Shown: positions 9,047-57,962, counted from the first letter of the stretch. The stretch: DNA of 64,000 bases from a virus (IMGVR_UViG_3300035670_000065:32001-96000); one strand, 5' to 3'. The notes: generated from the letters alone by a model not told the origin. Numbers and translations are program-made.

Positions 9047-9075
9047 ATTATACCATGGGAGGTACCATGTGTCAA
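9047..9075 (-). promoter_or_regulatory. sigma70 promoter of the appendage operon
   Basis: TTGACA-17-TATAAT on the minus strand. Confidence 0.85.
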
Positions 9076-9093
9076 TGATAGAAATTTATCACC

Positions 9094-10586: not shown

Positions 10587-10594
10587 GTACCCTC

Positions 10595-26200: not shown

Positions 26201-29200
26201 CGCTTCTTTTTCCTTAGTTGTAGCAGCTCGGGTATTATATACTGGGTCGGAATCTGCACTTCCTTGACTGACAAGGTCCTTTACCAGATAAGAATCTACT
26301 TTATCTTTTATTATCCCATCTAGCTTTGATTTGGCTGAGGCTACTTTATCTTGAGCTAATCCTATAGAAGCACTATTGACAACCGGATTTGCAATAGTGG
26401 GGCCAAACTGAGGAGTCTTAGGATTTAGAAATCCCAGTACTCTTTCCCCTCTATTATATTTATCCAGTAACTCTTGGGAATCTAGGAAATTAATACCTGC
26501 TTGCTCGAAGGATAGTGTTACAGTACGTAGTTGGCCAGCTAATCTTATGAATGTTTCTCCGAGCCCCTCACCTACTTGTTGGAAGGCTTCAATCCACGGA
26601 GTGGCTTTAGTTATTAAGCTATCAAATGCCTTACTAAATACACCTTGTAGAGCATCTGCAATTTCATCCCCTTTTAGTCCCTGTAAAGAGACTCTTAGAT
26701 CAATAGGTACATCCTCTAAAGATTTCATTATAGGGTCAATAGCTTGGATAGTGTATCCTAGGGTACTGAGCCCTTCAGATATTGAGGTATCCATTTCCTT
26801 GAATACTAGGGATAACTGTTTAGGGACTTCCCCAGTTACCTTCTTAATATTTTCAGAGATGCTAGTACCACTGTCTGCTCCAAAACCTAAAAATCCCGAA
26901 TCTTGCCAATGTGTGGCTACTGTCTCGTACTCATTAACTATTGCAGTTACATTCTTAATTGCGGAACTGGTACCTTTAATTATTAGACCTTTATCTACAA
27001 TTTCTGTAGAACTAGAAGAGCTTCCAAATATTAAGCTGGCTAATCCACCTCCGCCTCCGCCACTCTTTCCTTCTACAGTTCCGAATGATGAAGTTTTACT
27101 TAGGATATTAGTACTTCTAGCAATTCCTCCTGCCATCTCTGCAATATTAACATCGACGCTTCTTAAGGCGCGTAGCATAGACTGGTTGTAATCTAGCATT
27201 TCAAAGCTATGTTCTGCTAGAATTTCAATACCTGAACGGATTGAGTCAGACTTGGCTGTAGAGTCACCTAGTACAGATCCTGTGCCTTGTTTTTCTTGTC
27301 TTTCTTCGGCGGTAATTCCGGTTGGGATGGATACTGAAGCACTACTACCACCACCTAGGCTAGACATAATTGCTAACATAGCGGCTACGGCCGCAAATCC
27401 TAGGGGTCCCATAGTACTAAACATGGAGGCTGCTCCGGCGGCTGTTTTTACAGGTATACTAGCAGCATGCGCTGCTGTTACAGCCCCTTCTACAGCTACT
27501 TCTGCAGTTCCTCCGGCTATTATAGCAGAAATTTTAGATCCTAATAAACTTATCTCTTTAGTAAATTCTACCACCATCATGGCCATTTTAGCCATATGCA
27601 TAGTTTTCTCTATACCATCAAGTACTTTGTAAGCTACTGTCTTTTCAGAGAACATCTTCTTGAAAGCGCCAGCACCTGTACCTATTACATCTAATTGGTT
27701 CTTTAGAGAGTCTTTTTGATACTTCTTCTCTATTTTAGCGTCGGCCTCATAGAACTCTTTAGTATCAGCTCCATACTCCTTCAATGCTTTTAATTTTTGA
27801 TCTATAAGATTTTTATCTAGGCCTTCTTGCTTAGAAGTAAAGTCCGTTAAAGCCTTAACGCCTTTAGACAGTCCATCAGCAATTGAATCCCCTACGTCGC
27901 CAAATACTGCAGACAGAGATCTACCGAATTCCTCTGTATCTTTTAGGAGTGCGGAAATTCCTGCCATTTCTTCTTTATACTTGGCTGCTGCATCTGCTCC
28001 GGCGTTGGTTGCGTCATTAACAGCAATAGTACTATCTCTTACAGCATTTTGTTGTAGTACTAGTGCAACAAGTAGGTCTACCTGTTTCTGTCTTGAAGCA
28101 TTTAAGTCATCTATTAGTGCAGTATTTGGTTCTGAACTGTCTTTGGCAGCCTGTATACTAGCATCAATATTGGATATTTTTCCTTGTACCCCTGTCTGTG
28201 CTTCTTTATCTGCTAAGGCTTGTTTTTCTAGTTCTAAGGCTTGTTTTCTTTGTGAGGCTTCTGCTTCAATTCTATTTAAGCTCTTTACATGCTCAAGTTC
28301 TGTTATAGCCCCCAATTCTTTTAGCCTATCTAGCTGGGAGGTTGCATTAGACTCTTGTGCTTGTGTTAGGTTCTCTAAGTTAGTCTTATCTTTTAGGCTA
28401 TTCTGATCTTTAATACTGGCTATTTTTGCTTCGTTAGTAAATGCTACTTCTGCGGCAGCACCTGCTTTCTCTATGTATGCAAATCTAGCCTGTTCAATTT
28501 TCTCATCAAATCCCTTATTACTCTGGGCCTTTAAACCTTCCTGCTGAGCTATAAGCTTTTTATTTCCTTTAGAACGACTTATTAGCTCTTCAAATTTTGC
28601 AGCTTCAGCGACCTGTTCAGTAGCTAACTTGCTAATCTCTAGGTCTCGTTGTTGGGCGTCTATAGCTAGTTTAGCCGAAATAGATTTATTAGCGTAAATA
28701 CCCTCTTCCTTAATAAGGAAGTCTAGTCTTTTTGCCTCATTATCTAGTTCTTCTTTCTTTAACGCTAAAGATTTTTGGGTCTGCTTTAGGGCCTCTGCTC
28801 GTATTTCTCTCTGATTAGTTAGGGAGGCTTCTTGAGACTTAAGAGCTGCTGCATACTTTTGCTCATCTCGAGCCATTAAAGCCCCTTGCGCTCCAGATAA
28901 GTTGTCGTCACCTTTTAAGCTTTTTCCATCTGCAGTGCCTGCTTGTACTGCTTTAAGCTTACCTTCTGAAACCTTTAGACTATCAATTAGATCTACTAGT
29001 TTTTTGGCCGTTGGATCTTCTTGACCAGGTTTTAAGGCATCTGGATTATCTTTAAGTTTTAGAGCAAGTTGGTTAACTGCAATTAATCTTTCATTTGATA
29101 ACTTTAGACCCTCTTGGGATAGTAATAATTTAAATCTGCTATCTATAGCCTGCTGCTCAATACCTATTTCTTGCTGTGCAATGGCCCCTCTGGCTTTAAC

Positions 29201-42448: not shown

Positions 42449-42659
42449 TTATCTTGTTCCATGCTTCAATTAGTATATCTTCGTAGTCTTCATAGTAGTG
42501 AGGATCGCAGTCCATCCTAAGAGAGGCTCCACATTTCTGACCTAAAGTGTCGGAGCATTGCACACTCATAGATTGCCAAGCCCATCCATAACACTCTGAC
42601 GCAGCTCCTCCATAATCAACTGAAGCAGGAGATCCACATTGTTTGCAGTTCTTAATCAT
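42441..42659 (-). CDS. Lar-like zinc-ribbon protein
   Basis: CKQCG...VQC...CGA...EAWN. Confidence 0.5.
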   Translation of the reverse strand: MIKNCKQCGSPASVDYGGAASECYGWAWQSMSVQCSDTLGQKCGASLRMDCDPHYYEDYEDILIEAWNKIND

Positions 42660-43969
42660 ATTGTAAAGGTATAAAGTGCGTATCTAAGGGCATCCGCTAT
42701 GTGCGACGCCGAGTTGTGAATAGGTTTCTCGCGTTGTAGAGCTTCGTTAGGATCCCATTGGTATTGGTCTAGAGAATCTAAAGTATGAATACATTTATGT
42801 AGCACTTTTAAACGACCCTGTTGTACTAGGGTCTGAACGTACGCGATTCCTTCTAGAACTGCCTTGTTTGCTTTAATTGTAGCTATATCATAGTTGTAAG
42901 CTAAGTCAGCTCCGAACTGAGCTGCAGCAGAGTCGATGAAGATCGTCTCTACATCATGCCGTCTAATGATTTCGCGCAGTTCTTTAGCGTGTTGTGCGGT
43001 TGTTTTTTCAGCTTCTAAATAGTCCTCGATAACACAGAACCAGTCTTCTTCCACGTTGTAAGCTATAACTACGAAAGCAGTAGGGTCTTTGTACCCTGGA
43101 TCTAGGCCGCCAAATATCTCGTACTTACCTTCTGGTAGTTCTTCAATTATGTGCTCGGCTTCTAAAGTATAGATTTGACCTTCGAAGCTGTTGAATGACG
43201 CTTCGTATTCTTGCTCGAATTCAGCCTTGGACATGGTCAGCCGCGCTTCGGCAACGTCAGCTTCGCTCATCCTAGAATTCTCTCGCCAGTCGGCGTGGAT
43301 CGAGATCCATTCTTTCATGTCTGGAGATACGCCGCGGTTAAAGAACTGGCTAAACCAGTTTTTCTTACCTCGAGGCGTCGAAATGAATATAGCTTTCGAA
43401 CCTGGTCTATCTAGGGTCGGACGCAACGACACATTAAAAGCAGCCTCACCGTCGCTACTCAGAGCAGCCTCATCAAAGATAATCAAGTTGTAGGATCTTC
43501 CCACACAAGAATCCACCATTGACACGCTACCCATGCGAATTGTACTACCGTTTGATAGCTCTAGTACGCGTTCTTTAAGGTTATCTCGCTCCAATTCTAG
43601 GTCGAACTGCCGTATGAGTTTACGTTGTAGCTCGAACGAGATCGTCGACAAAGCATAGTTAGGTGACATAATCAGCACGTTCTGGTTTGGCACTAGAGCG
43701 ACCATTTGACCGATGATGTTCGCGGCAAAAGTTTTGCCCAGACGACGCGAAAGTGCTGCGCAAACGAATCTGTACTGAGGGTCATTAACTGCGTTAATTA
43801 ATGCAATTTGGGGTGCGTTCAAGTCATCAAAGACTGTACGTGGCTCTGCACTAGTAACAGGACTAGGAAGAAGTTTCATATAAGAATCAATAGGAAGCTT
43901 AATAAACCGCTTGTCCCCAAAGTTAATCAAGTGAGTAGTTGTTACACCCGGTCTACTAACTTTAAGCAT
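42656..43969 (-). CDS. terL: Terminase large subunit
   Basis: SRRLGKT Walker A, IIFDEAA Walker B, ISTPRG, GLDPG..D, H.ADALRY. Confidence 0.95.
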   Translation of the reverse strand: MLKVSRPGVTTTHLINFGDKRFIKLPIDSYMKLLPSPVTSAEPRTVFDDLNAPQIALINAVNDPQYRFVCAALSRRLGKTFAANIIGQMVALVPNQNVLIMSPNYALSTISFELQRKLIRQFDLELERDNLKERVLELSNGSTIRMGSVSMVDSCVGRSYNLIIFDEAALSSDGEAAFNVSLRPTLDRPGSKAIFISTPRGKKNWFSQFFNRGVSPDMKEWISIHADWRENSRMSEADVAEARLTMSKAEFEQEYEASFNSFEGQIYTLEAEHIIEELPEGKYEIFGGLDPGYKDPTAFVVIAYNVEEDWFCVIEDYLEAEKTTAQHAKELREIIRRHDVETIFIDSAAAQFGADLAYNYDIATIKANKAVLEGIAYVQTLVQQGRLKVLHKCIHTLDSLDQYQWDPNEALQREKPIHNSASHIADALRYALYTFTI

Positions 43970-45182
43970 AAACTAACTCACGTAAATCTTTCTCAACGCA
44001 GTCAAATACATATTCCCACGATTGAGGATTATCATATATTTCAACGTCATTATACCACACACTACGTCGTACACCATTACCCCATCTAAAGTCAGTCTCC
44101 TTATACGGCTGCAATACCCAAGTTCTAGCCCCAAGAGACCCAGCTAAATGAACTACAGATGTATCTACCGAAATTACGAGATCAAGTCCGTTAATACACT
44201 CCGCCGTATCAGTCCACGAGCCAATGTCCAACGAACGCACATACGGAGGAACGATAGCACCGGGCGCCAGACTATATAAGTTGCAAAAATTAGCAAGCCG
44301 CTTAAAACGCCCCACACTAGTGCTACGATACCTATCATTAGCATGAGTAGGAGAGCCAGCCCATACAATACCAACATTGAAGCCCGGACCAATATCTCTA
44401 ACACTGAATTTACCACGTAACCAATCTCCACTAGGAATATCACTAAAACACTCGCCTAAACTACAAATAGGGTAGGCCACTAAATCAGACGACGAAATAT
44501 CCACCGCATCCCGCACACACTCATAATCGCTAAAAAGTACCTCTAAAGAAGGGTGGCATTGGACGAATACTCGCTCAAACTTTTCAGCTAATAATGACAA
44601 GTACCTACCAAACATAATATTATCCCCAATACCTTGTTCGGTTAAAACTACTATATCCTTACCAGGACTAACACGATCCCAGTAGTTCAGTCCTTCCCGT
44701 GTATTCTTTAGCTTAATAGGAGGATTCTTTAGGAACCTAGCACGGTACTCCTCCCAAGCTGGTGGAAATACATCGAGCTTTCCAGAACTAGCTTGACGTA
44801 AAAGAGCAGTAGATAGATTCCAATGCGCTTCCCAGAAATCTCCCTTGCGCATGATAGCCTTCATGTACGTATCTACAGCACGAGTATCGTCCCCATACAT
44901 ATAGTACGCTAGACCTAAATTGTTGAGAGCGTGCAAATCGGTTCCGCTATTAGGGTCTAGGAAAGGGACTTTATCTTCTAAAGCCAGTTTATAGCAGCGT
45001 ATCATATCTTTGTCTTGGCCTAATGCTTTATAGCAGTTGCCAATATTTACATACGCTTCTTTACATGGATACTCCGCTAATACTTTTTTAAGCATTGGAA
45101 GTGCCCTTTTCACGTTACCTTTAGTTAGGTACTCTGTTGCCTTATTATAGTCTAAGGTTATTTTAGTTAAGTTTTCTATCAT
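43962..45182 (-). CDS. TPR-repeat glycosyltransferase (GT9-like C-terminus)
   Basis: TPR helices (AYVNIGN, ALNNLGL, AHWNLS); EQGIGDNIMF.RY; VGIVWAGSP.H.ND..RS; DLVISVDTSV.HLAG.LG; D.RW...WY. Confidence 0.85.
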   Translation of the reverse strand: MIENLTKITLDYNKATEYLTKGNVKRALPMLKKVLAEYPCKEAYVNIGNCYKALGQDKDMIRCYKLALEDKVPFLDPNSGTDLHALNNLGLAYYMYGDDTRAVDTYMKAIMRKGDFWEAHWNLSTALLRQASSGKLDVFPPAWEEYRARFLKNPPIKLKNTREGLNYWDRVSPGKDIVVLTEQGIGDNIMFGRYLSLLAEKFERVFVQCHPSLEVLFSDYECVRDAVDISSSDLVAYPICSLGECFSDIPSGDWLRGKFSVRDIGPGFNVGIVWAGSPTHANDRYRSTSVGRFKRLANFCNLYSLAPGAIVPPYVRSLDIGSWTDTAECINGLDLVISVDTSVVHLAGSLGARTWVLQPYKETDFRWGNGVRRSVWYNDVEIYDNPQSWEYVFDCVEKDLRELVYA

Positions 45183-45655
45183 TCTTTCGGCGCTAAAAGT
45201 TTTGCTATAAGGCTACCATACTTGGTGCCGTCCCCGCCAAACTCATTCATTTGAACATTTACCTGAGTCTGGACTTTGTTTCCTTGTTTTATCTTCTCTA
45301 ATTGAATCTCCCGGTCTAAGATATCCATTGACATCTTGTGAGACATCTGTAGTAAATCTGCGATATCCTTTGACGATCCGACCTCAGCCTCATCTAACTC
45401 TTCAAGCTTTTTCTGGATGAGTAAATCCATGACTTGTCGCATTCTAAAGCGATTGTTGAACCCTATGTCAGCGAACACGGAATTAATGTACGCTCGCACT
45501 TCAGGGCGCTCTAGGATCTCTGCGATGTGATCTTTAGGGTAACCTAAAGCATCTGATACTTTTTGGATCGAATTACATCCAAGATATTCATTTGCGACCT
45601 CTAACCCCTCAGGGGAGATCTGTACTGCTTGGGCTGGAGAGGCTACTGGTAACAT
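45179..45655 (-). CDS. terS: Terminase small subunit (T5-like)
   Basis: SPEGL.V...YL, GF.NR, KLEEL.E...GS.KDI..LL, Y..L..KL. Confidence 0.8.
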   Translation of the reverse strand: MLPVASPAQAVQISPEGLEVANEYLGCNSIQKVSDALGYPKDHIAEILERPEVRAYINSVFADIGFNNRFRMRQVMDLLIQKKLEELDEAEVGSSKDIADLLQMSHKMSMDILDREIQLEKIKQGNKVQTQVNVQMNEFGGDGTKYGSLIAKLLAPKE

Positions 45656-45684
45656 AATAGGATAAAAGTTGTGGCAATGATGAT

Positions 45685-45713
45685 ATTATAGCAGGTTTAG
45701 GGAATGTTGTCAA
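45685..45713 (-). promoter_or_regulatory. sigma70 promoter for the terminase operon
   Basis: TTGACA-17-TATAAT. Confidence 0.85.
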
Positions 45714-45988
45714 GTGTGAAAATTTTGGATGGGTGTGGACACGATGCTACACCTTAGGGTCGATAGCGAAAAAACCAAAATATTTTCTCTGCGTGCTACA
45801 CTTGTTACACCTTAGGGTCAGTCGAAAAATCTCATAATATTTTCTCTGGGGGTGGGCCCTGCTGTTGTAGGAAAACAACAAGTCTACTAACCCCCTCTAT
45901 TATAGCACACTTCCTTCTCACGTGTCAAATCAAATTTTCTTATGTATATAATAAACTTTCCTTATATGCCTGGAGCATACCCTGGCCC

Positions 45989-46043
45989 TGTTACAATTTG
46001 TTACAATTAGATGCTTGCATTGCGATGCGAATCGGAGCATAAT
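45989..46043 (+). promoter_or_regulatory. Pre-early promoter with TGTTACA-N3-TGTTACA box
   Basis: Box 45989-46005; TTGCAT-17-CATAAT; near-duplicate at 46894-46948. Confidence 0.75.
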
Positions 46044-46076
46044 AGCTTCATTGGATGACTAACGAGGTAACACGAA

Positions 46077-46202
46077 ATGACACAGAAACTGTTTAACGCA
46101 TACGCAACAAAGCATGGCATCTTCACCGCTATCTCGTTGTTCCATGTGCTCACGCAAGACAAGGCTCTCATCAAGAATTTGGTTACAGAATTTCGCACTT
46201 GA
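46077..46202 (+). CDS. Small pre-early protein (41 aa)
   Basis: GAGG SD, MTQKLFNAYATKHG..., downstream of a promoter. Confidence 0.5.
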   Translation: MTQKLFNAYATKHGIFTAISLFHVLTQDKALIKNLVTEFRT

Positions 46203-46257
46203 TTTTGTTGTTTAACTGATTTATAATAGATTCTTACACACTACGAAAGGAAACAAA

Positions 46258-46602
46258 ATGACTACCAAAACCGTGAATTACACTCCTGAGCAAACTGCTG
46301 CCGTTGTTGCTGATTACCAAGCAGGCGTGAGCGTTGAGCAAATTGCTGTTGCTGTGGGCAAGAGCGTGCGAAGCGTGGTTGCGAAACTGTCACGTGAGGG
46401 CGTATATGCCAAGAAGGTATATACTACGAAGAACGGTGATGCCGTTGTCAAGAAGGACGCACTAGCGTCTGAGCTGATGCTGTTGGTCGGTCTGACCGAG
46501 GCCGAGGCCGATAGCTTGGCTAAGGCTAACAAGACAGCGTTGGCTAAGATCGTGGCCGTTGTCAAGGCTAACGTGGTGAGCGATGCTAATGACGTAAGCT
46601 AA
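46258..46602 (+). CDS. A2-like DNA-binding protein (paralogue 1)
   Basis: NYT.E....V..Y, IA..VGKSVRS.VAKLSREGVY..K, V.K, SL.KANK; resembles T5 A2. Confidence 0.7.
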   Translation: MTTKTVNYTPEQTAAVVADYQAGVSVEQIAVAVGKSVRSVVAKLSREGVYAKKVYTTKNGDAVVKKDALASELMLLVGLTEAEADSLAKANKTALAKIVAVVKANVVSDANDVS

Positions 46603-46665
46603 TAGCATAACATTATGCCGATGGCGTAAGCTGTCGGCATAATGTTAGCATTATGTGAAGCGAAT

Positions 46666-46735
46666 AAAAAAGGCCTTATAAATCAAGGACTTAGGCCAGG
46701 GGCCTGGCTAACCTATTGATTTATAAGGCTTTTTT
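46666..46735. repeat. Palindromic double-IHF element 1
   Basis: A-tract..AATCAAGGACTTA-15 bp GC core-TAACCTATTGATT..T-tract. Confidence 0.85.
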
Positions 46736-46982
46736 GGGTGTTGTAAAAATACCACAGGCGCGCCATTATACCACATCCCCCTAGGGATGTCAAATAGAAT
46801 GTTTTTATAATCAGCATAAGGTGAGCTTATATGCTGTTAGCATACTAGCCTATGCTAACAGCATAATGACACGAGCATACCCTGGCCGATTCCTGTTACA
46901 TCTTGTTACAATTAGGCGCTTGCATTTCCTGGGCGATGAGAGCATAATACATTCATTGGATAAATGAATGAAAGGAAACAAA

Positions 46983-47293
46983 ATGTTCGGAAGCACTTTT
47001 AACAGCAATTACATCATCGCGATGATGGACGTTTATTTCGAATCCGTAGAAGATACTAATCTCGGAATGGAAGAAACTGTTTATATTCTTTTTAGCATGG
47101 GATGCGAGATCTAATCATGTTTAACATTATTCTTACCGATACTTATAACGACTATTCAAAGACGGTTTTCCGTTCTAATTCGCGTGAAATGGCAATTCAG
47201 ATTCGCGATGAAATGAATCGCTTGAATGCTGAGGCTGCCCGCTTGACTGGTCGCGCTATCCGTTATGCTTATTCGATTCTTCAGGTAAAATAA
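46983..47293 (+). CDS. Two small pre-early ORFs (46983-47114, 47117-47293)
   Basis: AAGGA SD downstream of promoter 46920-46948; tightly packed. Confidence 0.55.
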
Positions 47294-47294
47294 A

Positions 47295-47678
47295 ATGGCT
47301 AAATATGATACCGTTAAATTGCAGCGCATCGCGGAAACGTGGGCGATGGAATGGTGGAAGGCTGCGCGTAAAATATGGGGTGATAATATCGGCGCAATGC
47401 CTGCAATTAGAATGAATCCGCGTTTAACTGCTACGGGCGGGCGTGCATTCCTAGATCATAACTATTGCGATTTTTCATGTTATCTCATGGAACGGGAACC
47501 GGACTATTATAAATCAAATACTATTCCGCATGAATTGGCGCATCATATTGCATGGCGTTTATATAAAGATAATGGACACGGCAAGGCATGGAAGGACGTT
47601 TCTAAAATGTTATATGGCGATGATAATCGCTGTCACTCCATGGGAACAAAATACCATCATCAAAAGGCGGGTAAATAA
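47295..47678 (+). CDS. SprT-like zinc metalloprotease
   Basis: N.RL..TGG.A; TIPHELAH; GHGKAWK; RCH. Confidence 0.8.
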   Translation: MAKYDTVKLQRIAETWAMEWWKAARKIWGDNIGAMPAIRMNPRLTATGGRAFLDHNYCDFSCYLMEREPDYYKSNTIPHELAHHIAWRLYKDNGHGKAWKDVSKMLYGDDNRCHSMGTKYHHQKAGK

Positions 47679-47786
47679 TATGCTTGGGCTAATAATGTTT
47701 ATTTCAATTATGATACTTATCAATGCCGTATTATTGGAAATATATTACGACGATGACTAGGCAAGGAACGTGCCAGGAGCAATAAG

Positions 47787-47854
47787 AAAAAGGCCTTTAG
47801 AATCAAGGACTTACGGGGGCCCTGGCCTAAGCCTTTGATTTATAAGGCTTTTTT
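47787..47854. repeat. Palindromic double-IHF element 2
   Basis: AATCAAGGACTTA-14-TAAGCCTTTGATT. Confidence 0.85.
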
Positions 47855-48098
47855 CTTGCACTTGTCATTATGAAATGTTTTTATGGGCACATAAGCGCAG
47901 CTTATGGGGTGCGCCAAAATTATACCACACTATTTGACCACGGTCAAATCAAATGTTTTTATGAAGGGCATAAGCCTGGCTTATGATGCTTGTTACAATT
48001 TGTTACAATTCCTGGGCGATTATTTTCAAAAAACGCTTGCATTCTTTTCTGGAAGGACTATAATTCTCTACATGGACACAACGAAAGGAAACAGCAAG

Positions 48099-48563
48099 AT
48101 GATTAAAAAGGTTGAAATTTTCGACATGGATGGCACGATTGTTGATTCGACGCATCGCTATCGGACAATGCCATGTGGCACGAAAATTGATTTGCAATTC
48201 TGGCGTGATAATCAAGATAAGGCAATGGATGATAAACTGTTGCCGCTTGCGGATTACTATAAGGAATGCTTGGCAAATCCTAATGTTTATGTTATTATTG
48301 CGACTGCGCGTGTATTAAATGAACCGGATTATAAATTTATTAACGAAATTCTCGGAAAACCAGATTATATTATTTCTCGCAAACCCGATTCTAACATTTC
48401 TGGCGGGTTGCTTAAAATAAATGGATTGGCTAAATTCTTTAATCTTCGCAATTTCAAAAACGCAACATTCACTTTTTATGAGGATAATGTAAGCTACTTA
48501 AAAGCGGTTTGCGATAAATTCAATATAAACGGCGTATATTGTCCGTCGAAACAGGGGCACTAA
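48099..48563 (+). CDS. HAD-family phosphatase (possible nucleotidase)
   Basis: IFDMDGT, TAR, K, YEDN; start corrected to the SD-led ATG at 48099. Confidence 0.8.
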   Translation: MIKKVEIFDMDGTIVDSTHRYRTMPCGTKIDLQFWRDNQDKAMDDKLLPLADYYKECLANPNVYVIIATARVLNEPDYKFINEILGKPDYIISRKPDSNISGGLLKINGLAKFFNLRNFKNATFTFYEDNVSYLKAVCDKFNINGVYCPSKQGH

Positions 48564-48711
48564 AATGATAGAAAAGATTTTCAATTTTGTATCAATAATC
48601 GTTATTTTTCTGTTTATTACGATTGTTCCCTATGCTTGCACTACTAAAATAGTTAATCTGTAATTAAACGCGATAATCCGGCGATTCCGGTATTAAATAA
48701 AGGGTAATAAA

Positions 48712-49407
48712 ATGAGCAAAAAACAATTTTTTCTAATCGTTGATACTGAAACCACAATTACAGATAAGGTTTTTGATTTTGGCGCAATTGTTGCAGATCG
48801 CAATGGTAATATCGTGGCGCAATGCGCGGTTATCGTTTCGGATTTTATGGGCGATGAATTGTTTTATGATGCAAAAGATAATGGTTTTTGGGGTAAAAAG
48901 GCTGCCGTTGAACGTAAAATTAAATATGATGCAATGGTTAAATCCGGTGCTCGGATGGTTGCATCTGCTAATGCTGTGAATCGTTGGCTTGAAAAAGTTG
49001 CTGCAAAATATAATCCTACTCTCACGGCTTATAATCTTGCATTTGATCGCAATAAATGCGCGAATACTGGAATTGATTTAACCATGTTCTCGAATTCTTT
49101 TTGTTTGTGGCATTTGTCTTGCGCGGTATTTGCTAAGACTAAGGGTTATCGTCAATTTGTTTTGAATAATCATTATTTTGGTAATCGTACCGATAAGGGC
49201 AATATGACTTATAAAACAAATGCTGAAGTTATGGCGCATTATGTTATCGGACAATTTAGCGAAGAACCGCATACAGCATTAGAAGACGCACAATTTTATG
49301 AATTGCCAATTTTGGTTTCTATTCTAAAGAAACGCGATTATAAAGATAAAATCGGTCAAGCTTATAATTGGAAAGATTACCAATTAAAAGATAATTTCAC
49401 GGCTTAA
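48712..49407 (+). CDS. DEDD(h) 3'-5' exonuclease
   Basis: VDTETT, AYN..FD, HTALEDA. Confidence 0.85.
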   Translation: MSKKQFFLIVDTETTITDKVFDFGAIVADRNGNIVAQCAVIVSDFMGDELFYDAKDNGFWGKKAAVERKIKYDAMVKSGARMVASANAVNRWLEKVAAKYNPTLTAYNLAFDRNKCANTGIDLTMFSNSFCLWHLSCAVFAKTKGYRQFVLNNHYFGNRTDKGNMTYKTNAEVMAHYVIGQFSEEPHTALEDAQFYELPILVSILKKRDYKDKIGQAYNWKDYQLKDNFTA

Positions 49408-49497
49408 TAAGCCGTTATAATAGCCGGATTATATCCGGCTATTATTTCGCCCAGGCCTGTTACAATTTGTTACAATTTTTCTATGCTCCCAGCATCG

Positions 49498-49565
49498 AAA
49501 AAACCCTTTAAAATCAAGGACTTAGGCCAGGGCCTGGCTAACTCATTGATTTTAAAGGCTTTTTT
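49498..49565. repeat. Palindromic double-IHF element 3
   Basis: AATCAAGGACTTA-14-TAACTCATTGATT. Confidence 0.85.
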
Positions 49566-49820
49566 CGGGTGGTGGCTGGCACGGTTATTGCTCTGTTACA
49601 TCTTGTTACAATTCCTGGGGCGTATCATGCAAAAAATGCTTGACTTCGCTATCCGTGGGCGTATAATTCACTACATGGACAAACAACAAGGAAACAGCAA
49701 AATGAACAACGACAAAATTTATATCTACAACCGCGAATGGAAATGCGTGAATAATGCACTGGCTGCGTTTATTCTAATAAAGGTTTCGGGTTACACTCTC
49801 ATGGCTAAAGGTAAATAATA

Positions 49821-50030
49821 ATGATTAAATGGATTGGAACAATTGCGGGAATTATCGGTTCCCTATTGGTTGCGATGAATAACGGTTTGCAGTTTATCGG
49901 ATATTCTGCTTTCCTGATTGGTGCGGTATCGTGGCTAATCGCTTCTATTCAAAATAAGGATAAAGCGGGAATCGCACAATGGGGATTTTTTACTGCCGTA
50001 AATATTATGGGGATTATAAATTATGTTTGA
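49821..50030 (+). CDS. Small membrane protein
   Basis: 69 aa hydrophobic; preceded by a 38-aa ORF at 49702-49818. Confidence 0.6.
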   Translation: MIKWIGTIAGIIGSLLVAMNNGLQFIGYSAFLIGAVSWLIASIQNKDKAGIAQWGFFTAVNIMGIINYV

Positions 50031-50143
50031 TTTGGTCGATGAAATGATGGGGGAAGAATTGGTTGATTTTGAAACTTTGGAATCTGCCGGATTAGAAGAT
50101 TCTTATTGCGGGGATACTGTTCCCGCTGCACAAAAGGCATATT

Positions 50144-50488
50144 ATGATGATGAACAATAAAGAATTAGAGGTTTTAGATTTTGCTTATGACTTCTGCAAT
50201 ATGATGAAATGGGAATTACCAATCGAACGCGTTAGAATAACCAAAATGATGCGTTATAAGGGATTATGCACAAATGACGGCGAGCGCATTTATCTGGTAT
50301 TATCCGAAACGACTAACGAAGATAATAAAGACTTTTTCGCTACGCTAATTCATGAGTTAATCCATGCGAAATTGATTATGACAAAGCACTGGAAAAAGGC
50401 GCATAAACATGGTAAATTGTTTAAGCGAATAGCTAAGAAAATCGAAAAGAAAACAAATGGATTTTATACTGTAAAGGAAATAATATAA
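50144..50488 (+). CDS. Second SprT-like metalloprotease
   Basis: TLIHELIH...HG..FK; GAAA-tetraloop terminator follows. Confidence 0.7.
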   Translation: MMMNNKELEVLDFAYDFCNMMKWELPIERVRITKMMRYKGLCTNDGERIYLVLSETTNEDNKDFFATLIHELIHAKLIMTKHWKKAHKHGKLFKRIAKKIEKKTNGFYTVKEII

Positions 50489-50571
50489 CCGCCGAAAGGC
50501 GGTTTTTTATTGCCATATAATCCAGGCTGGCACGATTCTTGCGCCGAAATTTTCGTGCCAGGCAGGGCCAG

Positions 50572-50641
50572 AAAAAAGCCTTTAAAATCAAGGACTTAGG
50601 CGGGCCCCTGGCGTAAGTCATTGATTACAAAGGGAATTTTT
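50572..50641. repeat. Palindromic double-IHF element 4
   Basis: AATCAAGGACTTA-15-TAAGTCATTGATT. Confidence 0.85.
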
Positions 50642-50893
50642 AGGTGCTCGTCATAATATGCCTGGAGGATGCTTTAGGTTTCAAGTAATGATGGAGGCAT
50701 TATGCACATGGGATACTTGACATTTCAAATAAGACCTGGGCATCCTGTTCTGTTACATCCTGTTACACTTCCTGGCGCACAATGTTGAAAAAACGCTTGC
50801 AATATTTTTGGAAGGGCGTATAATTCTTTACATCGGATGATGAACTGACCTAGCGAAACCCGATACTCTCAATCAGGTCAAGGAGAATCAAAA

Positions 50894-51250
50894 ATGGCTG
50901 CTAAAACGACTGTTGCGAACTACTCGGACGATCAAGTTGCCCGCATCGAACAAGCTGCGGTTGCGGCTGGTGGCAAAATCAATGCCGCTGTTGCTGAAAT
51001 GCTTGCGGTTGAAATGGCGAAATCGGTTCGCTCACTGGTTGCGAAAGCCTCGCGTATGGGCCTCTACGCTGCGAAAACCTACGTTCGCAAGGATGATACT
51101 CCGGTTCAGAAAAAGGATGAGTTTGCGACTGCGATTGGTAACATTCTTCGTCTGAGCGAAGCTGATACCGACTCGCTTGCGAAAGCTAATCGCAAGGGGC
51201 TGCAGGCGATATTTAACGCCCTTGCGAATTCAACTCCGATTGACGGCTAA
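50894..51250 (+). CDS. A2-like DNA-binding protein (paralogue 2)
   Basis: NYS..Q, KSVRSLVAKASRMGLY..KTY, SLAKANRK. Confidence 0.7.
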   Translation: MAAKTTVANYSDDQVARIEQAAVAAGGKINAAVAEMLAVEMAKSVRSLVAKASRMGLYAAKTYVRKDDTPVQKKDEFATAIGNILRLSEADTDSLAKANRKGLQAIFNALANSTPIDG

Positions 51251-51726
51251 TCGGTAAAAGGTTTGCCGGATTACCTTGGAAATCCGGCTTATTCTAATAA
51301 GGGATTATATTATGATGCGACTGACTCTTGATTATTCTGATTTTGGCGTCGATTCGATTGTAGATAGCGAATCGGTTATTGTTGAGAAACTCGAAAAGAA
51401 ACTCGAAGATGAATTCTGTAATTGGGATATTGATATGGCTTTTGATTGGGATACTCTGCAACTCGATCACGTTAATGGTTATATTGAAATCGGGTTTTCC
51501 GAATTTAACTAAGGGGATACAATGAGCGAATATGATACCTATATGATGATTGAAGAATACGTCTGGTTTATTCAATTTATACTCCAGATGCTAGGATTAG
51601 ATATTGAATTCTTTTAACCGCCGAAAGGCGGTTTTTATTTGTCTGGGCAACTCTTATATAAGACATAAGAACTCTTATATAAGACCTGTCTTATGTCTTA
51701 TATAAGACCCAGGAGCCTCACTAACG

Positions 51727-51796
51727 AAAAAAGCCTTTAAAATCAAGGACTTAGCCCAGGGCCCCCATAACCTATTGATTTGTCAAGACTATTTTT
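51727..51796. repeat. Palindromic double-IHF element 5
   Basis: AATCAAGGACTTA-14-TAACCTATTGATT. Confidence 0.85.
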
Positions 51797-51819
51797 CGTA
51801 ACCACCGGCCTCGGCGTGG

Positions 51820-52810
51820 AAGTGAGCACTCACTCCCGACCCTAAATTGTAGCAAGTTTCGTGCCACCGAAAAGAGGATAAACCTGTCCCAATTTAGGGT
51901 CAATGTGTTGCGTGGAACCAACAGGTGTATGTTTCACGCAACACCGGAGGTGAGCACTCACTTCGCACCTGGCGCGGTGCGCCCCAGTGCAAAAACTTCA
52001 AGTGCAAAATCTCCATGGTTCTGCGCCCATTATAGCAAGTGCAAAACCTCTGTGTCAAGATCAAATTTTTAAGCCCTGACCCTAAATTGAGCAAATACCT
52101 CCAGCCACAGCCCGCCTGCGCCGGCCGCCGCAAGTGCAAAAACTTCAGTGTGGCCGCTGCAACTTAGGGTCAGGGCTGTCAAGATTATTTTTTAAGAGCC
52201 ACCTGCGCCCATTATACTCCGGCACCTCCCCAATTGTCAAGACAGGATTTCTGACCCTAAATTGGGCAAAGTCGAGCAGATTCGAGTAAAAGCGAGCATA
52301 TTTGAGCAATTTGATGCAATTTGCGTTAATTTAGGGTCAGGACGTAGCAAATTGGACCACCAATAAAAAATCGGGGGTAGGCTACTTTGTAAGCAGTTAC
52401 AACCTGCGTAATTTCCGTCTTGATTTAGAATCCTGGTCAGCGTATAATACTAATCATTGGGAGAGAAAAATATCTTCCTGGTGTCAGAGAAGAAAAATTG
52501 AACTTGAAGAACGATGATTAAGCGTTTATAATATGTAAATGATGTGAGAGAAAGGGAACGATATGAATGATGAACAAGTCACATCGCTTTGGTACGATAC
52601 GACTGAAACCTGGGGTGTTACCGTAGATGAAGCACAATTCGTGACATTGCAAGATACCTTAGTAGCTTTCGACTTACTTGAAGATTTTGAGTTTTGAAAA
52701 TTTGATGTTGATTCAGTAACTGAGACGCTTTATAATACTTACATAGGGTGATGAAACAGACTGACCCTAAATTGAACGAACTGTAACAGACTGACCCTAA
52801 GTTGAACAAA
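51820..52810. repeat. Largely non-coding repeat block (candidate injection-stop signal)
   Basis: CTGACCCTAAATTG in alternating orientation, GTGAGCACTCAC x2, AGTGCAAAA x4, 10-bp periodic GAGCA, 30-bp tandem repeat at 52755-52814. Confidence 0.7.
52420..52736 (+). promoter_or_regulatory. Three tandem rightward sigma70 promoters
   Basis: TTGAnn-17-TATAAT at 52420-52448, 52504-52532, 52708-52736. Confidence 0.75.
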
Positions 52811-52857
52811 CTATAGCAAACTTTTATATCACTAACCAGTCCAAGGAGACTCTAATT

Positions 52858-53157
52858 ATGACCACCAAGACCGTGAACTACACCCCCGAAATGACTGCCG
52901 CTGTTATTGATGCTTACAAGAACGGTGATACCGTCGAAGCAATCGCTGTTGCAACCGGTAAGTCCGTCCGTTCCATCGTTGCAAAGCTGTCCCGCGAAGG
53001 TGTCTACGCAGCGAAAGCGAAGACTGCGGGTGCTGTAAAGGGTGCTACCAAAACCGAGCTGGTTGCTCAGATTGCTGAAAAGCACGGTGTCGAAGCTGAC
53101 GCACTTGCTGGACTCGAAAAGGTAAACAAGGACGTATTGCTTATCCTGTGTTCCTGA
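52858..53157 (+). CDS. A2-like DNA-binding protein (paralogue 3)
   Basis: MTTKTVNYTPE...GKSVRSIVAKLSREGVY, closely similar to 46258. Confidence 0.7.
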   Translation: MTTKTVNYTPEMTAAVIDAYKNGDTVEAIAVATGKSVRSIVAKLSREGVYAAKAKTAGAVKGATKTELVAQIAEKHGVEADALAGLEKVNKDVLLILCS

Positions 53158-53297
53158 CCCTCCTGGGTTGACCCTAAATTGCAGCAAGCAGTAGCTCCAG
53201 ATCGAAAGGTCTGGAGCTTTTTTATTATTGTATAAAAAGACAAAGAGCTCTTATTTTGCATAATAAAAAAGGGAGCCGATTTCTCAGCCCCCTTAAC

Positions 53298-53630
53298 TTA
53301 AATCTTCTCCCGCAGCGACTTCTCAATTAAAATCAATGCAGTTTTCGTTACCTTCTCCATCGACTCTAATAAATCAATATTCAAATCCAATAGAGTAGCG
53401 ATGCGTTGGATATATTCTTCTTTACGAACAGGGGGTTCCCCCCGTTTATTTAAGTACTCTTTCTTTTTATAAATTCCTAGAGAACTCAGCTTAGCGATAA
53501 TTGACCTAGGTGGAATTTGCTCATTCACTTGTTCAGATACCCAGTCTGCTATTTGCTCAATACTTTTTCCAGACTTATAGTCTGATACAACTTGATTAGT
53601 TATCTCTATAGTGTATTTCATATTACTCAT
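53298..53630 (-). CDS. A2-like DNA-binding protein (paralogue 4, divergent)
   Basis: KYT.E....V.DY..G.S.EQIA...RSIIAKLS.LG.Y.KK.Y..K.G..PV.K. Confidence 0.65.
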   Translation of the reverse strand: MSNMKYTIEITNQVVSDYKSGKSIEQIADWVSEQVNEQIPPRSIIAKLSSLGIYKKKEYLNKRGEPPVRKEEYIQRIATLLDLNIDLLESMEKVTKTALILIEKSLREKI

Positions 53631-54711: not shown

Positions 54712-55797
54712 TCAATTTTTTTCATCCCCATAAGCTAGAGATAATATTTCTGATTTAGTGGCTAAGGACCAGCCTTTAGTTGACTTTTGATCTCCTTTAA
54801 TTACTAGAGAAAGGGACTGTTTTAGCAGGCTATGAGTTGCTGCGAATGCAGATACTCCTCTTTCGTATATTCTATAGAGTTTATTGTCCGGAGATTTAAT
54901 CGTGGCTATTTGCTTAGCAGGCTGTAGATACCAACCCTCATATATCTTTAAATACCCATTTAGAAGCTGCTTGACCCTAGTCTGTTCTAGGTTGTGAGAC
55001 TGGCAGAATTGCTTAACATCTAGAACCTCTGTCTTTTTGCCATCTTTATATAGGTAGATAGATTCTATAAACTTATGTCTTTTCCGGTCTATTCTATCTA
55101 TGACTAGGAACGCTTTAGGATGTTCCTCTCTTAGATAGTGATGGGACCTACCTGCTAGAATGGATCTAATAGTATCTTCAGCAACTCCCGTGGATTCTTC
55201 AATCTCTCTAACTAACAATTTAGGGTCTTGAAGAAGCTCTAGTACCTTTAGGATCTGTTCTTCTGTGAATTTTGCTCTCTGATGTGAGTGTCCTTGTTTA
55301 CGACGAGAAGTCTGCAATATCTTTAGGAACTCTTCGGGGAACTCCTCCTGAATCCAGGTATGAGTTCTGCCTGCTTTAATATTATATAGCTGCCCTTCAC
55401 TAATACCTGTTATTTTCTCTATATCTTTAAGAGATAATTCCGGATCTTGCAAAAGAGGTAGAGCCTGTATAATCTGTTCTTTACTGTATTTAGCTCTAGG
55501 GTGCTCTGTACCTCCTCTAAATATATCTACTTCCGCAATATTGAGACCTTGATTAATAGAGTTTAACCTATCAATCCAGTAAGCTTCTCTAGAGTTGAGA
55601 TCAATTATCCTACATTCTTCTATAATTTCTAAATTGGGTAGCCCACACATTTCATACGCTTCATTCAACTTAGGGTTATAATGCCCCTGTTCAAAAGAAT
55701 ACTTATGTGCTTTAAACCTTGCTTCTATATTTCTAGACTGCCCAACATAGGGCCAATCTTCCAACCCTTCAAACACTAACTTGTAAATACCTATCAT
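54712..55797 (-). CDS. GIY-YIG homing endonuclease with repeated DNA-binding modules
   Basis: GIYKL...YVGQS.NI..R...H; duplicated H.RAK...EQI..HTH modules. Confidence 0.85.
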   Translation of the reverse strand: MIGIYKLVFEGLEDWPYVGQSRNIEARFKAHKYSFEQGHYNPKLNEAYEMCGLPNLEIIEECRIIDLNSREAYWIDRLNSINQGLNIAEVDIFRGGTEHPRAKYSKEQIIQALPLLQDPELSLKDIEKITGISEGQLYNIKAGRTHTWIQEEFPEEFLKILQTSRRKQGHSHQRAKFTEEQILKVLELLQDPKLLVREIEESTGVAEDTIRSILAGRSHHYLREEHPKAFLVIDRIDRKRHKFIESIYLYKDGKKTEVLDVKQFCQSHNLEQTRVKQLLNGYLKIYEGWYLQPAKQIATIKSPDNKLYRIYERGVSAFAATHSLLKQSLSLVIKGDQKSTKGWSLATKSEILSLAYGDEKN

Positions 55798-56678: not shown

Positions 56679-57391
56679 AACGGTTCAGACCTTCGTAGTC
56701 ACATATGAAGTACGAGAAGAGGAAAACCATAGGTTCCTGGATATGTTAGCAGACCAGGACGATCTGTCTGAGTTTGAGGTAGAACAGACTTACATCGGAG
56801 AGCAGATAGTTCATGCAGAATCCGATTGAGCCTGCGGACGAAGAAGTAGTCTTTGCTCCGGAGGACGAACCGATTGAGTTAGGTGGGATAGCTGATAAGC
56901 CTCCCGTGCCTCATATGGTTAAGCACGTTATGGAAGTGCTGGCACAGAGCGCAGAAGCTTCTTATTTAGTATGGCTAAAGCTCAGCCTAAAGTACGGCAG
57001 TATGCAGAAAGTAGTATGACTGAACTTACTGAAATACTGTACAGAACTAACAGGTCTATTTCTAGCGCTTGTGAAGAACTATCAGCTGTCTTTGCTATGG
57101 AAGACTTAGAAGACCTGGAACAATGCAGCCACTGCAACGTATGGTGGCACGACTATGAACTAATACCTGATCAAGACGATAACCAGGTGTGTAAATTTTG
57201 TGGAACTTATTATGGCTTATAATATATCAATAGAGAAAAAAGAATTAGATGGGCTTCTCAACTACTTGTTAGACGCCCCGACCCGAAGTGGTATGTACCC
57301 TATAGTTGTTGCAATTTTGGGTCAGGTGGAAGCACAGAACGCTAAAGCTAAGGCAGAAGCTGACCCTATGCCCCGGCCTGAGAATGACTAA
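56665..57391 (+). CDS. Four small hypothetical ORFs (56665-56829, 56813-57019, 57016-57222 Zn ribbon, 57212-57391)
   Basis: Overlapping stop/start packing; CxxC...CxxC in 57016. Confidence 0.55.
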
Positions 57392-57962
57392 GACTCTCCT
57401 TAGCCTATTTGATTTTAGTGGGCGGTGGAGTCGACCCTACGTTGAGGCAGGTTGGGATGTGTACCAGGTAGACATAAAGCTGGGGATTGATATACTTAGC
57501 TTAGAACCGTGTGATCTACCCCCTAAGATAGATGGAATACTAGCGGCTCCTCCTTGCACAGACTTTGCCGGGAGTGGCGCACAATACTGGAAAGCGAAAG
57601 ACTTAGATGGAAGAACAGAACATTCACTCGCGCTTCTTGACAAAACCCTTAGTCTGGTACGGCACTATGAACCAGTATTCTGGGCCTTGGAAAATCCGGT
57701 GGGTAGACTCCCTACACTACGTCCAGAAATCGGAAAGCCCTGGTACTTCAACCCAAATGAGTTCGCAGGATGGCTTGAAGGAGAATGTTACACCAAGCGA
57801 ACCGGTCTTTGGGGAGTATTCAATAAACCCGAAAAACTGGCCCTTCCCGTCTCAGGAACCTCCCCAATAATGTCATTAGGAGGGAAATCTGAGAGAACGA
57901 AAGAACTACGATCAATGACCCCATTAGGATTTGCATATGCTTTCTACAATTCGAACCACTGA
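57384..57962 (+). CDS. Short DNA (cytosine-5) methyltransferase
   Basis: LLSLFD.SG (I), VDI (II), APPCT.F (IV), LENP (VI), KRT (VIII). Confidence 0.8.
   Translation: MTKTLLSLFDFSGRWSRPYVEAGWDVYQVDIKLGIDILSLEPCDLPPKIDGILAAPPCTDFAGSGAQYWKAKDLDGRTEHSLALLDKTLSLVRHYEPVFWALENPVGRLPTLRPEIGKPWYFNPNEFAGWLEGECYTKRTGLWGVFNKPEKLALPVSGTSPIMSLGGKSERTKELRSMTPLGFAYAFYNSNH

Follow-up and report, generated by a model that had tools for sequence, protein, structure and literature searches.

The window analysed here is the whole 64,000-nucleotide stretch of DNA from an uncultured virus (IMGVR_UViG_3300035670_000065:32001-96000), and positions are counted from its first letter. The region described below, 45656-53297, encodes 17 small genes, and 44% of it is noncoding (Table 1). 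In and beside it lie four paralogous helix-turn-helix genes of the A2 family, which match the T5 protein A2 over full length (hhalign E 5e-4). Their matches to phrog_1725 are weak, 2e-5 to 1e-2, where T5 A2 itself gives 4e-52, and the best A2 ortholog is found at another place in the genome. The homolog of the T5 pre-early gene dmp (deoxynucleotide 5'-monophosphatase) is kept in all relatives. No A1 homolog was found by tblastn or with phrog_1745, the phrog search being one without a positive control.

Table 1. Features in and beside the region, by position in the window.
Feature	Position	Strand	Remark
Left-border region	45656-45928	-	
Perfect leftward sigma-70 promoters	45713-45685, 45928-45899	-	face small terminase gene
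17-nt repeat, two copies	45745-45761, 45803-45819		end in TTAGGGTC
Tandem TGTTACA-N3-TGTTACA pairs, six	45989, 46894, 47991, 49458, 49594, 50751	+	span 45989-50767
Rightward sigma-70 promoters after TGTTACA pairs	46015-46043, 46920-46948, 48037-48064, 49640-49667, 50797-50824	+	
A2-family helix-turn-helix paralog 1	46258-46602	+	alignment, hhalign
Palindrome D1-1	46667-46736		two inverted IHF consensus sites, each with A-tract; 3' of first A2-like gene
Backward sigma-70 promoter, perfect	46765-46793	-	directed into D1-1; predicted RNA about 95 nt
Other pre-early genes	47295-50488	+	include several ORFs of 26-63 aa
SprT-like metalloproteases	47295-47678, 50144-50488	+	
Sigma-54 box, perfect	47761-47775	-	points away from D1-2
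Palindrome D1-2	47786-47855		two inverted IHF sites; sigma-54 box alongside
Backward promoter, 11/12	47947-47919	-	into D1-2
HAD phosphatase, dmp homolog	48099-48563	+	tblastn 2e-12
DEDDh-type exonuclease	48712-49407	+	
Palindrome D1-3	49497-49566		two inverted IHF sites; sigma-54 box alongside
Sigma-54 box, perfect	49577-49591	+	beside D1-3; in tandem with sigma-70 promoter 49640-49667
Membrane protein, 69 aa	49821-50030	+	
Sigma-54 box, perfect	50528-50542	+	precedes D1-4; convergent with box at 50554
Sigma-54 box, imperfect	begins 50554	-	precedes D1-4
Palindrome D1-4	50571-50640		two inverted IHF sites; convergent sigma-54 boxes before
Backward promoter, 10/12	50728-50699	-	into D1-4
A2-family paralog 2	50894-51250	+	
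ORF-free repeat block, about 0.9 kb	51618-52562		inner end of putative terminal repeat
Palindrome D1-5	51726-51795		right arm degenerate; three TCTTATATAAGAC palindromes before (51652-51708)
GTGAGCACTCAC palindromes, two	51822, 51950		in ORF-free block
Convergent GACCCTAA-type site pairs	51838/51894, 52078/52164, 52253/52331		in ORF-free block
Sigma-54 box, perfect	51852	-	in ORF-free block
AGTGCAAAA repeats, four copies			in ORF-free block
Perfect backward promoters	52058-52029, 52240-52211	-	in ORF-free block
Rightward promoters	52420, 52504	+	in ORF-free block
A2-family paralog 3	52858-53157	+	
A2-family paralog 4	53298-53630	-	

The noncoding part carries recurring motifs. We compared their numbers in the region with those in 300 dinucleotide shuffles and in the other 104 kb of the 112-kb genome; since the motifs sit within repeated modules, the single counts are not independent of one another. 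The IHF consensus WATCAANNNNTTR occurs ten times, compared with 0.8 in the shuffles and five in the remaining genome, while TGGCAC-N5-TTGC is found four times, against 0.02 and none. There are 11 copies of GACCCTAA (0.12 in the shuffles) and six TGTTACA-N3-TGTTACA pairs (none in the shuffles). Perfect TTGACA-17/18-TATAAT promoters number five, every one on the minus strand. All but one of the 27 CCWGG sites are noncoding, that is 7.8 per kb of noncoding against 0.23 per kb of coding DNA (Fisher 7e-9). DnaA boxes are not enriched: the region has two where one is expected, both of them outside the ORF-free block. The intergenic 44% holds all ten IHF matches, the four perfect sigma-54 boxes, the six TGTTACA pairs and the five perfect sigma-70 promoters.

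An earlier, sequence-only reading had described the intergenic blocks as mosaics of five double IHF palindromes, four perfect sigma-54 boxes and one more, six TGTTACA repeats and CCWGG. All of these were located, the fifth sigma-54 box being the imperfect one, and as a set they stand far above chance. Further, the same motif classes are present in a syntenic relative, L010. The five sigma-70 promoters that had been called gene-less do exist as perfect copies, but two of the five face the small terminase gene. The claim that most motifs have no gene to regulate was not confirmed, as five of the six TGTTACA pairs lie near a gene-driving -35 box and the palindromes close operons.

The ten IHF matches form inverted pairs in five 70-bp palindromes, each 3' of an operon. 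Every site has an A-tract about 8 bp upstream of the consensus, the same offset as in lambda H'. Among 76 consensus IHF sites from ten related loci, A makes up 63-84% at positions -14 to -9. The core sequence of H' is quoted in PMC2709558. Palindromes D1-1 to D1-4 have RNA folds of -31 to -35 kcal/mol (z -3.6 to -5.3; for D1-1, -35.4 and -4.9) with U-tracts on both strands, and the fold of D1-5 is weak (-15.6). By these features the palindromes are predicted bidirectional intrinsic terminators closing each operon. In L026, L096 and L066 the IHF pair consists of direct repeats, showing that the conserved feature is the site and not the hairpin. Most relatives with 60-72% dmp identity have other palindromes in place of IHF pairs, and IHF is thus inessential to the design. 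The phage genome has no HU/IHF gene. A proteobacterial, perhaps betaproteobacterial, host had been proposed; this fits weakly, with Betaproteobacteria making up 19 of the 50 bacterial genomes that carry the 21-nt half-palindrome.

The perfect sigma-54 boxes fit the consensus TGGCACG-N4-TTGCW, with its -24 GG and -12 GC, and sigma-54 boxes are conserved in L010, L026, L066 and L196. In 13 of 14 boxes tabulated from the window, L010, L026 and L066, TGGCACG and a correctly spaced TGC are kept while the 4-nt spacer varies; two TGGCACG copies in L010 are without a -12 element. Within the region, the boxes face outward and are 31-37 bp away from the closest IHF site. Over six cases in three phages the distance is -24 to -37 bp, and in five of these -31 to -37. 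At known sigma-54 promoters IHF acts between enhancer and promoter (PMC2709558), and glmY and glmZ have overlapping sigma-70/sigma-54 promoters with IHF (PMC3045617). No PF00158 domain, as expected of an enhancer-binding protein, is encoded by the phage, and no shared dyad that could serve as an activator site was recognised upstream of the boxes. Some boxes are convergent (50528/50554), in tandem at 26 bp (L200, L201) or antisense to genes, and in such arrangements they look more like operator arrays than promoters.

The sigma-70 promoters also keep fixed positions. In five of the six TGTTACA pairs the downstream -35 box follows at 9, 9, 29, 29 and 29 bp; the pair at 49458 has no promoter, which counts against a promoter-operator reading. 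In L026 and L196 the same 9-bp unit goes with leftward promoters. Backward promoters aimed into the IHF pair are seen in four phages (the window, L010, L026 and L096).

The ORF-free block can be aligned in part to L010 12960-14160, and it resembles the T5 injection-stop region. Two SlmA-like sites had been noted: both copies of GTGAGCACTCAC are present and match the published SlmA site GTGAGTACTCAC at 11 of 12 positions (PMC3020112). L010 has one such copy (10/12), adjoining an IHF pair; the shared part is the core AGCACTCACT only.

Several observations place the region within the phage. The large terminase is 47% identical to that of Demerecviridae. The gene order is TerL, a TPR gene, TerS and then the region, and in T5 it is TerL, TerS, pb5, llp and then the right repeat. 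The region therefore occupies the T5 terminal-repeat position, right of the small terminase gene, with the late genes of the terminase end on one side and the early genes on the other. Over 46.5-51.7 kb the contigs are 1.6-1.9 times (about 1.7-fold) as deep as their flanks: run X2 gives 50-59 there and 30-34 in the flanks, run X1 17-24 and 8-11. These are contig means from a mixed community; the step lies near 45.7 kb. Judging from depth, T5-like position and genes, the region is probably terminally redundant and first injected. The earlier T5-like reading of the phage and of the region agrees with the terminase, map position, dmp homolog, A2-family paralogs and raised contig depth.

Taken as a whole, we lean, by a little over even chances, towards a distant T5 relative whose pre-early control region is made of composite units using host IHF, sigma-70 and probably sigma-54 polymerase. 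There would be five or six short transcription units of one to four small genes, each with a strong rightward sigma-70 promoter and a tandem TGTTACA operator in helical register. Each unit would end in a palindrome made of a head-to-head pair of IHF sites in the style of lambda H' (A-tract, 8 nt, consensus), where host IHF may impose a sharp double bend between units. The near-consensus backward promoters would give short RNAs antisense to the 3' ends of upstream operons. The sigma-54-type -24/-12 boxes, some of which stand in tandem with the next operon's sigma-70 promoter, may recruit host sigma-54 polymerase. The four A2-family paralogs are the likeliest proteins to bind the GACCCTAA-type sites and the other phage-specific repeats clustered at the inner end, in the ORF-free block, and this block may itself be the counterpart of the T5 injection-stop repeat region. 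On our reading most of the motifs are an elaborate means of controlling and punctuating genes with borrowed host factors, and not gene-free "effector" DNA. The noncoding share and the concentration of CCWGG are more than ordinary regulation needs, and this counts against our preferred reading.

The sequence-only reading had taken the DNA itself to be the effector. One form of this, a titration sponge, is implausible for IHF: the protein is very abundant, and ten sites are too few to titrate it. Another form is a nucleoprotein plug or anchor, in which arrays of host-protein sites (IHF bends, silent sigma-54 complexes, SlmA-like sites) stop, hold or protect the first-step DNA, or tie second-step transfer to host state. 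We consider this unlikely, though the best of the alternatives. The ORF-free repeat block does occupy the inner end of the putative repeat, as the injection-stop region does in T5, and inverted GACCCTAA-type sites (I9/I11) flank the whole region, comparable to the T5 long-range inverted repeats. Sigma-54 holoenzyme sits on promoters in an inactive state (PMC4591121), convergent or tandem boxes cannot all fire, and the promoterless TGTTACA pair and the noncoding share point the same way. A landing pad or stop is not new in kind: for T5, binding of membrane DnaA to the injection-stop region has been proposed (Davison, bioRxiv 10.1101/866236). However, DnaA boxes are not enriched here, two-step injection is only presumed for this phage, and many close relatives that presumably inject alike are without IHF pairs. 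Most modules stand at fixed distances from promoters and operon ends, placed like the promoters, operators and terminators of the 17 genes; DNA as effector is possible only for the ORF-free block.

Somewhat less probable again is that the repeats are operators for small phage proteins, the four A2-family paralogs among them, that would time pre-early expression and shut-off, the likeness to host factors being largely coincidental. There are at least seven distinct repeat families to go with the four paralogous genes, and the sigma-54-like boxes are arranged as direct and inverted arrays. Further, GACCCTAAATTG, AGTGCAAAA and TCTTATATAAGAC fit no host consensus known to us. By the T5 annotation, A1 and A2 govern pre-early shut-off and DNA transfer. 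Coincidence is harder to reconcile with sigma-54 boxes in which the spacer drifts but exactly the invariant GG and GC positions are held. The IHF sites fit their consensus, with the A-tract offset of lambda H', and are kept across phages with a dmp identity of only about 40%; bacterial genomes contain the 21-nt half-site 50 times, with about two expected. That the modules are mobile promoter/stem-loop cassettes, whose repetition drives recombination and gene shuffling and whose embedded sites have little function, is very unlikely: modules do sit at differing places in the window and L010 (the palindromic box at 50528 and 13025), palindrome type differs between lineages, assembly graphs show many joints between copies, and small variable ORFs are separated by cassettes as with PeSLs (PMC2839356), but consensus positions are conserved while spacers drift, the geometries (9 or 29 bp, 31-37 bp) are fixed, and the modules are far larger and more composite than PeSLs.

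A broader idea, which we regard as speculative and on balance improbable, is that a T5-like clade has built the use of host sigma-54 polymerase and IHF into the DNA that it injects first. If so, pre-early expression may partly need a host enhancer-binding protein, and the phage would read host state, e.g. envelope or nitrogen stress, in the first minutes. Alternatively, silent sigma-54/IHF complexes and backward transcription would form insulating or stopping structures between units. We know of no documented sigma-54 promoter in a lytic phage, a literature search included, and either version would be the first use of sigma-54 by one that is known to us.

Parts of the arrangement have known parallels. 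The oop RNA of phage lambda is short, starts at a strong constitutive promoter, enters the 3' end of an early gene in antisense direction and is ended by a terminator; the RNAs predicted here would stop likewise but overlap the terminator region only. In E. coli, RIP/BIME-1 elements combine IHF sites and GC-rich palindromes at operon ends, whereas here the IHF sites are the palindrome arms and do not lie between REP palindromes. IHF-assisted sigma-54 promoters (nifH, Pu, glnHp2; PMC2709558) share the TGGCACG-N4-TTGC box and an IHF site whose centre lies some 55-60 bp upstream of the predicted start, and the tandem sigma-70 promoter for the same genes recalls glmY/glmZ (PMC3045617). Unlike these, the phage boxes come without an identified enhancer-binding protein or activator site, and they flank a symmetric IHF pair on either side and in some cases converge or run antisense.

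PeSLs, the promoter-early stem-loop cassettes of T4-type phages (Arbiol et al. 2010, PMC2839356), also place a repeated consensus sigma-70 promoter and a terminator stem-loop between small, variable early genes and are apparently shuffled between genomes. The present cassettes belong to a T5-like phage, are composite and 300-400 bp long, aim their strongest promoter backward into a palindrome that is an IHF site pair, and add sigma-54-type boxes and a tandem-repeat operator.

A further close system is the left terminal repeat of T5, the first-step-transfer DNA, which includes the untranslated Repeat Regions 1-3 and an injection stop signal. It differs in several respects: the searches found no A1 homolog here, all pre-early genes are co-oriented here, the putative repeat is shorter (about 6 kb, compared with 10 kb in T5), and the best A2 ortholog here lies outside it. 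The paired DnaA boxes described in the T5 injection-stop region (Davison 2020) have no enriched counterpart, and the first 12 kb of T5 contain, by the patterns used, no perfect IHF consensus (one match to the looser WATCAR form) and no sigma-54-like box. In both phages, however, the region adjoins the terminase end, and its pre-early genes include dmp and, by weak matches here, a DNA-binding protein of A2 type. Strong sigma-70 promoters point both ways in each of them, large untranslated blocks are full of direct and inverted repeats, and in both an ORF-free repeat block lies at the inner end, where for T5 a host DNA-binding protein has been hypothesised to act on the DNA (10.1101/866236).

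The stretch at 45656-53297, the putative first-injected pre-early region of an uncultured T5-like phage, had been read from sequence alone as a mosaic of binding-site motifs. Pattern counts show this observation to be largely right: every definable motif class is present and enriched. All ten IHF consensus matches in the stretch fall in five 70-bp palindromes, each made of two inverted sites, and the four perfect sigma-54 boxes of the whole genome all lie inside it. The stretch also holds six TGTTACA tandem pairs, eleven GACCCTAA sites, two GTGAGCACTCAC palindromes agreeing 11/12 with the SlmA site (site from PMC3020112), and five perfect TTGACA-17/18-TATAAT promoters, all directed opposite to the gene strand and here called backward promoters. 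CCWGG is intergenic in 26 of 27 cases (7.8 per kb vs 0.23 per kb in coding sequence; Fisher 7e-9). DnaA boxes are not enriched in the stretch. LysR, SdhR and HexR are tentative site labels, and the T-N11-A rule is satisfied by any short dyad. IHF-type sites, sigma-54-type boxes and backward promoters recur in related phages, for instance in the syntenic relative L010 and in L026.

The motifs are arranged in repeated units. A palindrome is followed by a backward promoter, a small hairpin and sometimes a sigma-54 box; then come a TGTTACA pair, an A-rich element, a rightward sigma-70 promoter and the genes, up to the next palindrome. The TGTTACA pair ends 9 or 29 bp upstream of the -35 box, a difference of two helical turns, and its 9-bp unit is coupled to the backward promoter instead in the related loci L026 and L196. 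Since the TGTTACA unit is tied to promoters in either orientation, it is probably an operator or activator site coupled to them. The predicted folds of palindromes 1-4 reach -31 to -35 kcal/mol, and U-tracts are present on each strand; by folding they are predicted to behave as bidirectional terminators closing each operon. It was wrong to say that most sites have no gene to regulate, as five of the six TGTTACA pairs are promoter-coupled and the palindromes close operons. Backward promoters begin at a distance of 57-92 nt from the centre of the palindrome, with predicted RNAs of about 95-125 nt, and this arrangement recurs in L010, L026 and L096. An Rfam search with the palindromes gave nothing beyond sub-threshold matches to plastid 3'-UTR hairpins. 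In L196 one cassette contains, at 150-700, a highly repetitive ORF of short ACTGACTGC/ATTGGCTGC-type units.

Several lines of evidence suggest that the IHF site itself, beyond the hairpin, is under selection. A scan of viral contigs with the 14-nt IHF core gave nine loci with a common gene set (dmp, A2-like genes, small terminase), making twelve related loci when L010, L009 and the window are added. The two IHF sites are direct repeats 34 bp apart in L026, L096 and L066; in L106 the site is located in the loop of a hairpin that immediately precedes a promoter. When 76 sites are aligned the four variable positions do vary, and there is an A-tract at -14 to -9, the layout also seen in lambda H'. 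The core sequence of H' is quoted in PMC2709558. Further, the two-arm hairpin is not optimised, because the four 'N' positions of the arms do not pair mutually. No HU/IHF gene was found in the phage. One-per-species bacterial genomes contain 50 copies of the 21-nt half-site vs about 2 expected; the carriers (L130-L179) are mainly Burkholderiales, Pseudomonas and Phenylobacterium, with 19 of the 50 in Betaproteobacteria. About ten of these copies lie beside tRNA 3' ends, and in Pseudomonas the half-site forms the stem of the tRNA terminator. There is no support for reading the bacterial copies as IHF sites in the attachment arms of integrated elements; one tRNA-linked copy adjoins a molybdopterin oxidoreductase gene. 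IHF pairs are absent from L009 and from most metagenome relatives with 60-72% dmp identity, where other palindromes are present, and this counts against the necessity of IHF. In T5 1-12000 the search patterns matched neither a sigma-54-like box nor a perfect IHF consensus.

Fourteen sigma-54 boxes were tabulated from the window, L010, L026 and L066. Thirteen consist of TGGCACG, a drifting four-base spacer and TGC; the fourteenth, in L066, is degenerate. For six boxes the nearest IHF site centre is 24-37 bp upstream of the GG (31-37 bp in five of them), and the IHF-linked boxes are found on either side of the palindrome, directed outward. This spacing would place IHF at about -50 to -60 of the predicted promoter, as in known IHF-assisted sigma-54 promoters. 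Several boxes and a sigma-70 promoter serving the next operon stand in tandem (window 49577; L010 7340, 8173 and 11144; L026 8852; L196), an arrangement with a precedent in glmY and glmZ (PMC3045617). From the motifs we consider recognition by sigma-54 slightly better than an even bet. The doubt has three sources: no phage-encoded sigma-54, sigma-70 or enhancer-binding protein was found; comparison of the upstream regions gave no convincing shared activator dyad; and some boxes are convergent, in tandem at 26 bp, or antisense.

The sequence-only reading had proposed that the DNA itself is the effector. For most modules this is unneeded; for the ORF-free block at the inner end of the putative terminal repeat it is still a possible reading. 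The idea is not new in kind, as Davison's DnaA model for T5 predates it (10.1101/866236). The block can be aligned with L010 in some parts only. We infer that its phage-specific repeats are bound by the A2-family paralogs; in the stretch as a whole, candidate targets of these proteins are the GACCCTAA-type, TGTTACA, AGTGCAAAA and TCTTATATAAGAC sites. Genome-wide there are 36 copies of GACCCTAA, mostly co-oriented with genes, and part of this excess is due to early promoters containing TTGACCCTAA. A role of GACCCTAA as a promoter element holds only for these three promoters outside the stretch; the sites in the stretch have no -10 box.

CCWGG is about 30 times denser in intergenic modules than in genes, both in the stretch and in L010 7168-14836, with CCTGGC or CCTGGG frequent where modules join. 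The sites could be degenerate -24 elements, methylation targets or recombination joints. An early ORF of 218 aa, which could be related to this pattern, marginally matches the C5 cytosine methyltransferase family PF00145 (21.8 bits vs a cut-off of 22; 22.3 with neighbouring matches in frame) and no PDB or NCBIfam hit.

The IMG/VR virus record, from subsurface and soil metagenomes, has 111,992 bp, of which the window is bases 32001-96000. Scaled from T5, the tape measure implies a very long tail. An N4-like phage, with a giant virion polymerase and hairpin promoters, was suspected from the giant ORF and some small hairpins, and was ruled out by the match of the 2935-aa protein to a tape measure family and by the T5-like terminase. 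Megablast and blastn gave no matches of the stretch to cultured relatives, and the DEDDh exonuclease search nothing closer than distant Enterococcus phages. The TPR-repeat protein is kept at 40-57% identity in L009, L010, L026 and L066, and in L010 an additional 255-aa minus-strand gene separates the small terminase from the stretch.

Features of the phage (window coordinates unless stated)
Feature	Position	Strand	Remarks
Tape measure	23279-32086	minus	2935 aa; among minus-strand structural genes upstream of large terminase
Large terminase	42656-43969	minus	47% identity to T5-like phages of about 110-115 kb
TPR-repeat protein	43962-45182	minus	406 aa; between large and small terminase genes
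Small terminase	45179-45655		directly left of stretch
T5 dmp homolog	48099-48563	plus	tblastn 2e-12
Two SprT-like proteases, one DEDDh exonuclease	in stretch	plus	
A2-family helix-turn-helix paralogs	three in stretch; fourth just beyond	plus; fourth minus	alignment of paralogs
ORF-free block	51618-52562		three convergent GACCCTAA-type pairs, two SlmA-like palindromes, one sigma-54 box, four AGTGCAAAA repeats, two perfect backward and two rightward promoters
Third rightward promoter	52708		just beyond block
Two direct GACCCTAA sites	52763, 52793		just beyond block
Homing-endonuclease-like gene	54712-55797	minus	361 aa; GIY-YIG/HNH PHROG hits; just right of stretch
Methyltransferase-like early ORF	57306-57962	plus	218 aa; marginal PF00145 match
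Early promoters TTGACCCTAA-N13-TATAAT	58833, 63901; 73864		73864 outside window
Best A2 ortholog	genome 110598-110951 (window coordinate 78598-78951)		outside window and putative terminal repeat, ~25 kb from stretch

The 17 small ORFs of the stretch are all on the plus strand, and 44% of it is non-coding; by a cruder measure, 29% lies outside ORFs of at least 50 aa vs 7% of the remaining genome. The helix-turn-helix paralogs align with T5 A2 over the full length (hhalign E 5e-4) and match the PHROG of A2 at 2e-5 to 1e-2, where A2 itself scores 4e-52. The genome's best A2 ortholog (phrog_1725, E 1e-24) is among early plus-strand genes. T5 A1 was not found by tblastn or by a phrog search, the latter being weak as it matched nowhere at all. 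In two public runs the contigs covering 46.5-51.7 kb reach 50-59 and 17-24 in mean depth vs 30-34 and 8-11 in the flanks, as expected if a terminal repeat of about 6 kb had collapsed in assembly, though this is only suggestive. Joints between assembly contigs are numerous and are attributed to repeats and co-occurring relatives.

To our knowledge, it has been debated since the 1980s why T5-type DNA injection pauses and what the large untranslated repeat blocks of first-step DNA are for. The phage supplies short synthesisable elements, namely the 70-bp double IHF palindrome, fixed-offset sigma-54 boxes, the TGTTACA operator and the backward promoters, that are open to in vitro tests with purified host factors and no phage culture. 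Binding of IHF and sigma-54 polymerase would show that the enhancer-dependent polymerase of the host is used by some lytic phages from the onset of infection. If neither binds, the region is still a clear case of modular early-gene cassettes, similar to promoter-early stem-loops (PeSLs), outside the T4 group.

In T5 the gene order is large terminase, small terminase, pb5, llp and the right terminal repeat, while here it is large terminase, TPR gene, small terminase and the stretch. Within the T5 repeat are dmp, A1 and A2 as well as strong promoters of both orientations, and the injection-stop region, which is untranslated, occupies the inner end. Two inverted GACCCTAA-type sites at the left border of our stretch are reminiscent of the long-range inverted repeats in that stop region. 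The cassette logic of the present units resembles that of the PeSLs of T4-type phages (PMC2839356). What appears to be new, judged from the motifs, is how the units are composed: operons are punctuated by paired H'-type IHF sites, combined with fixed-offset sigma-54 boxes and consensus backward promoters.
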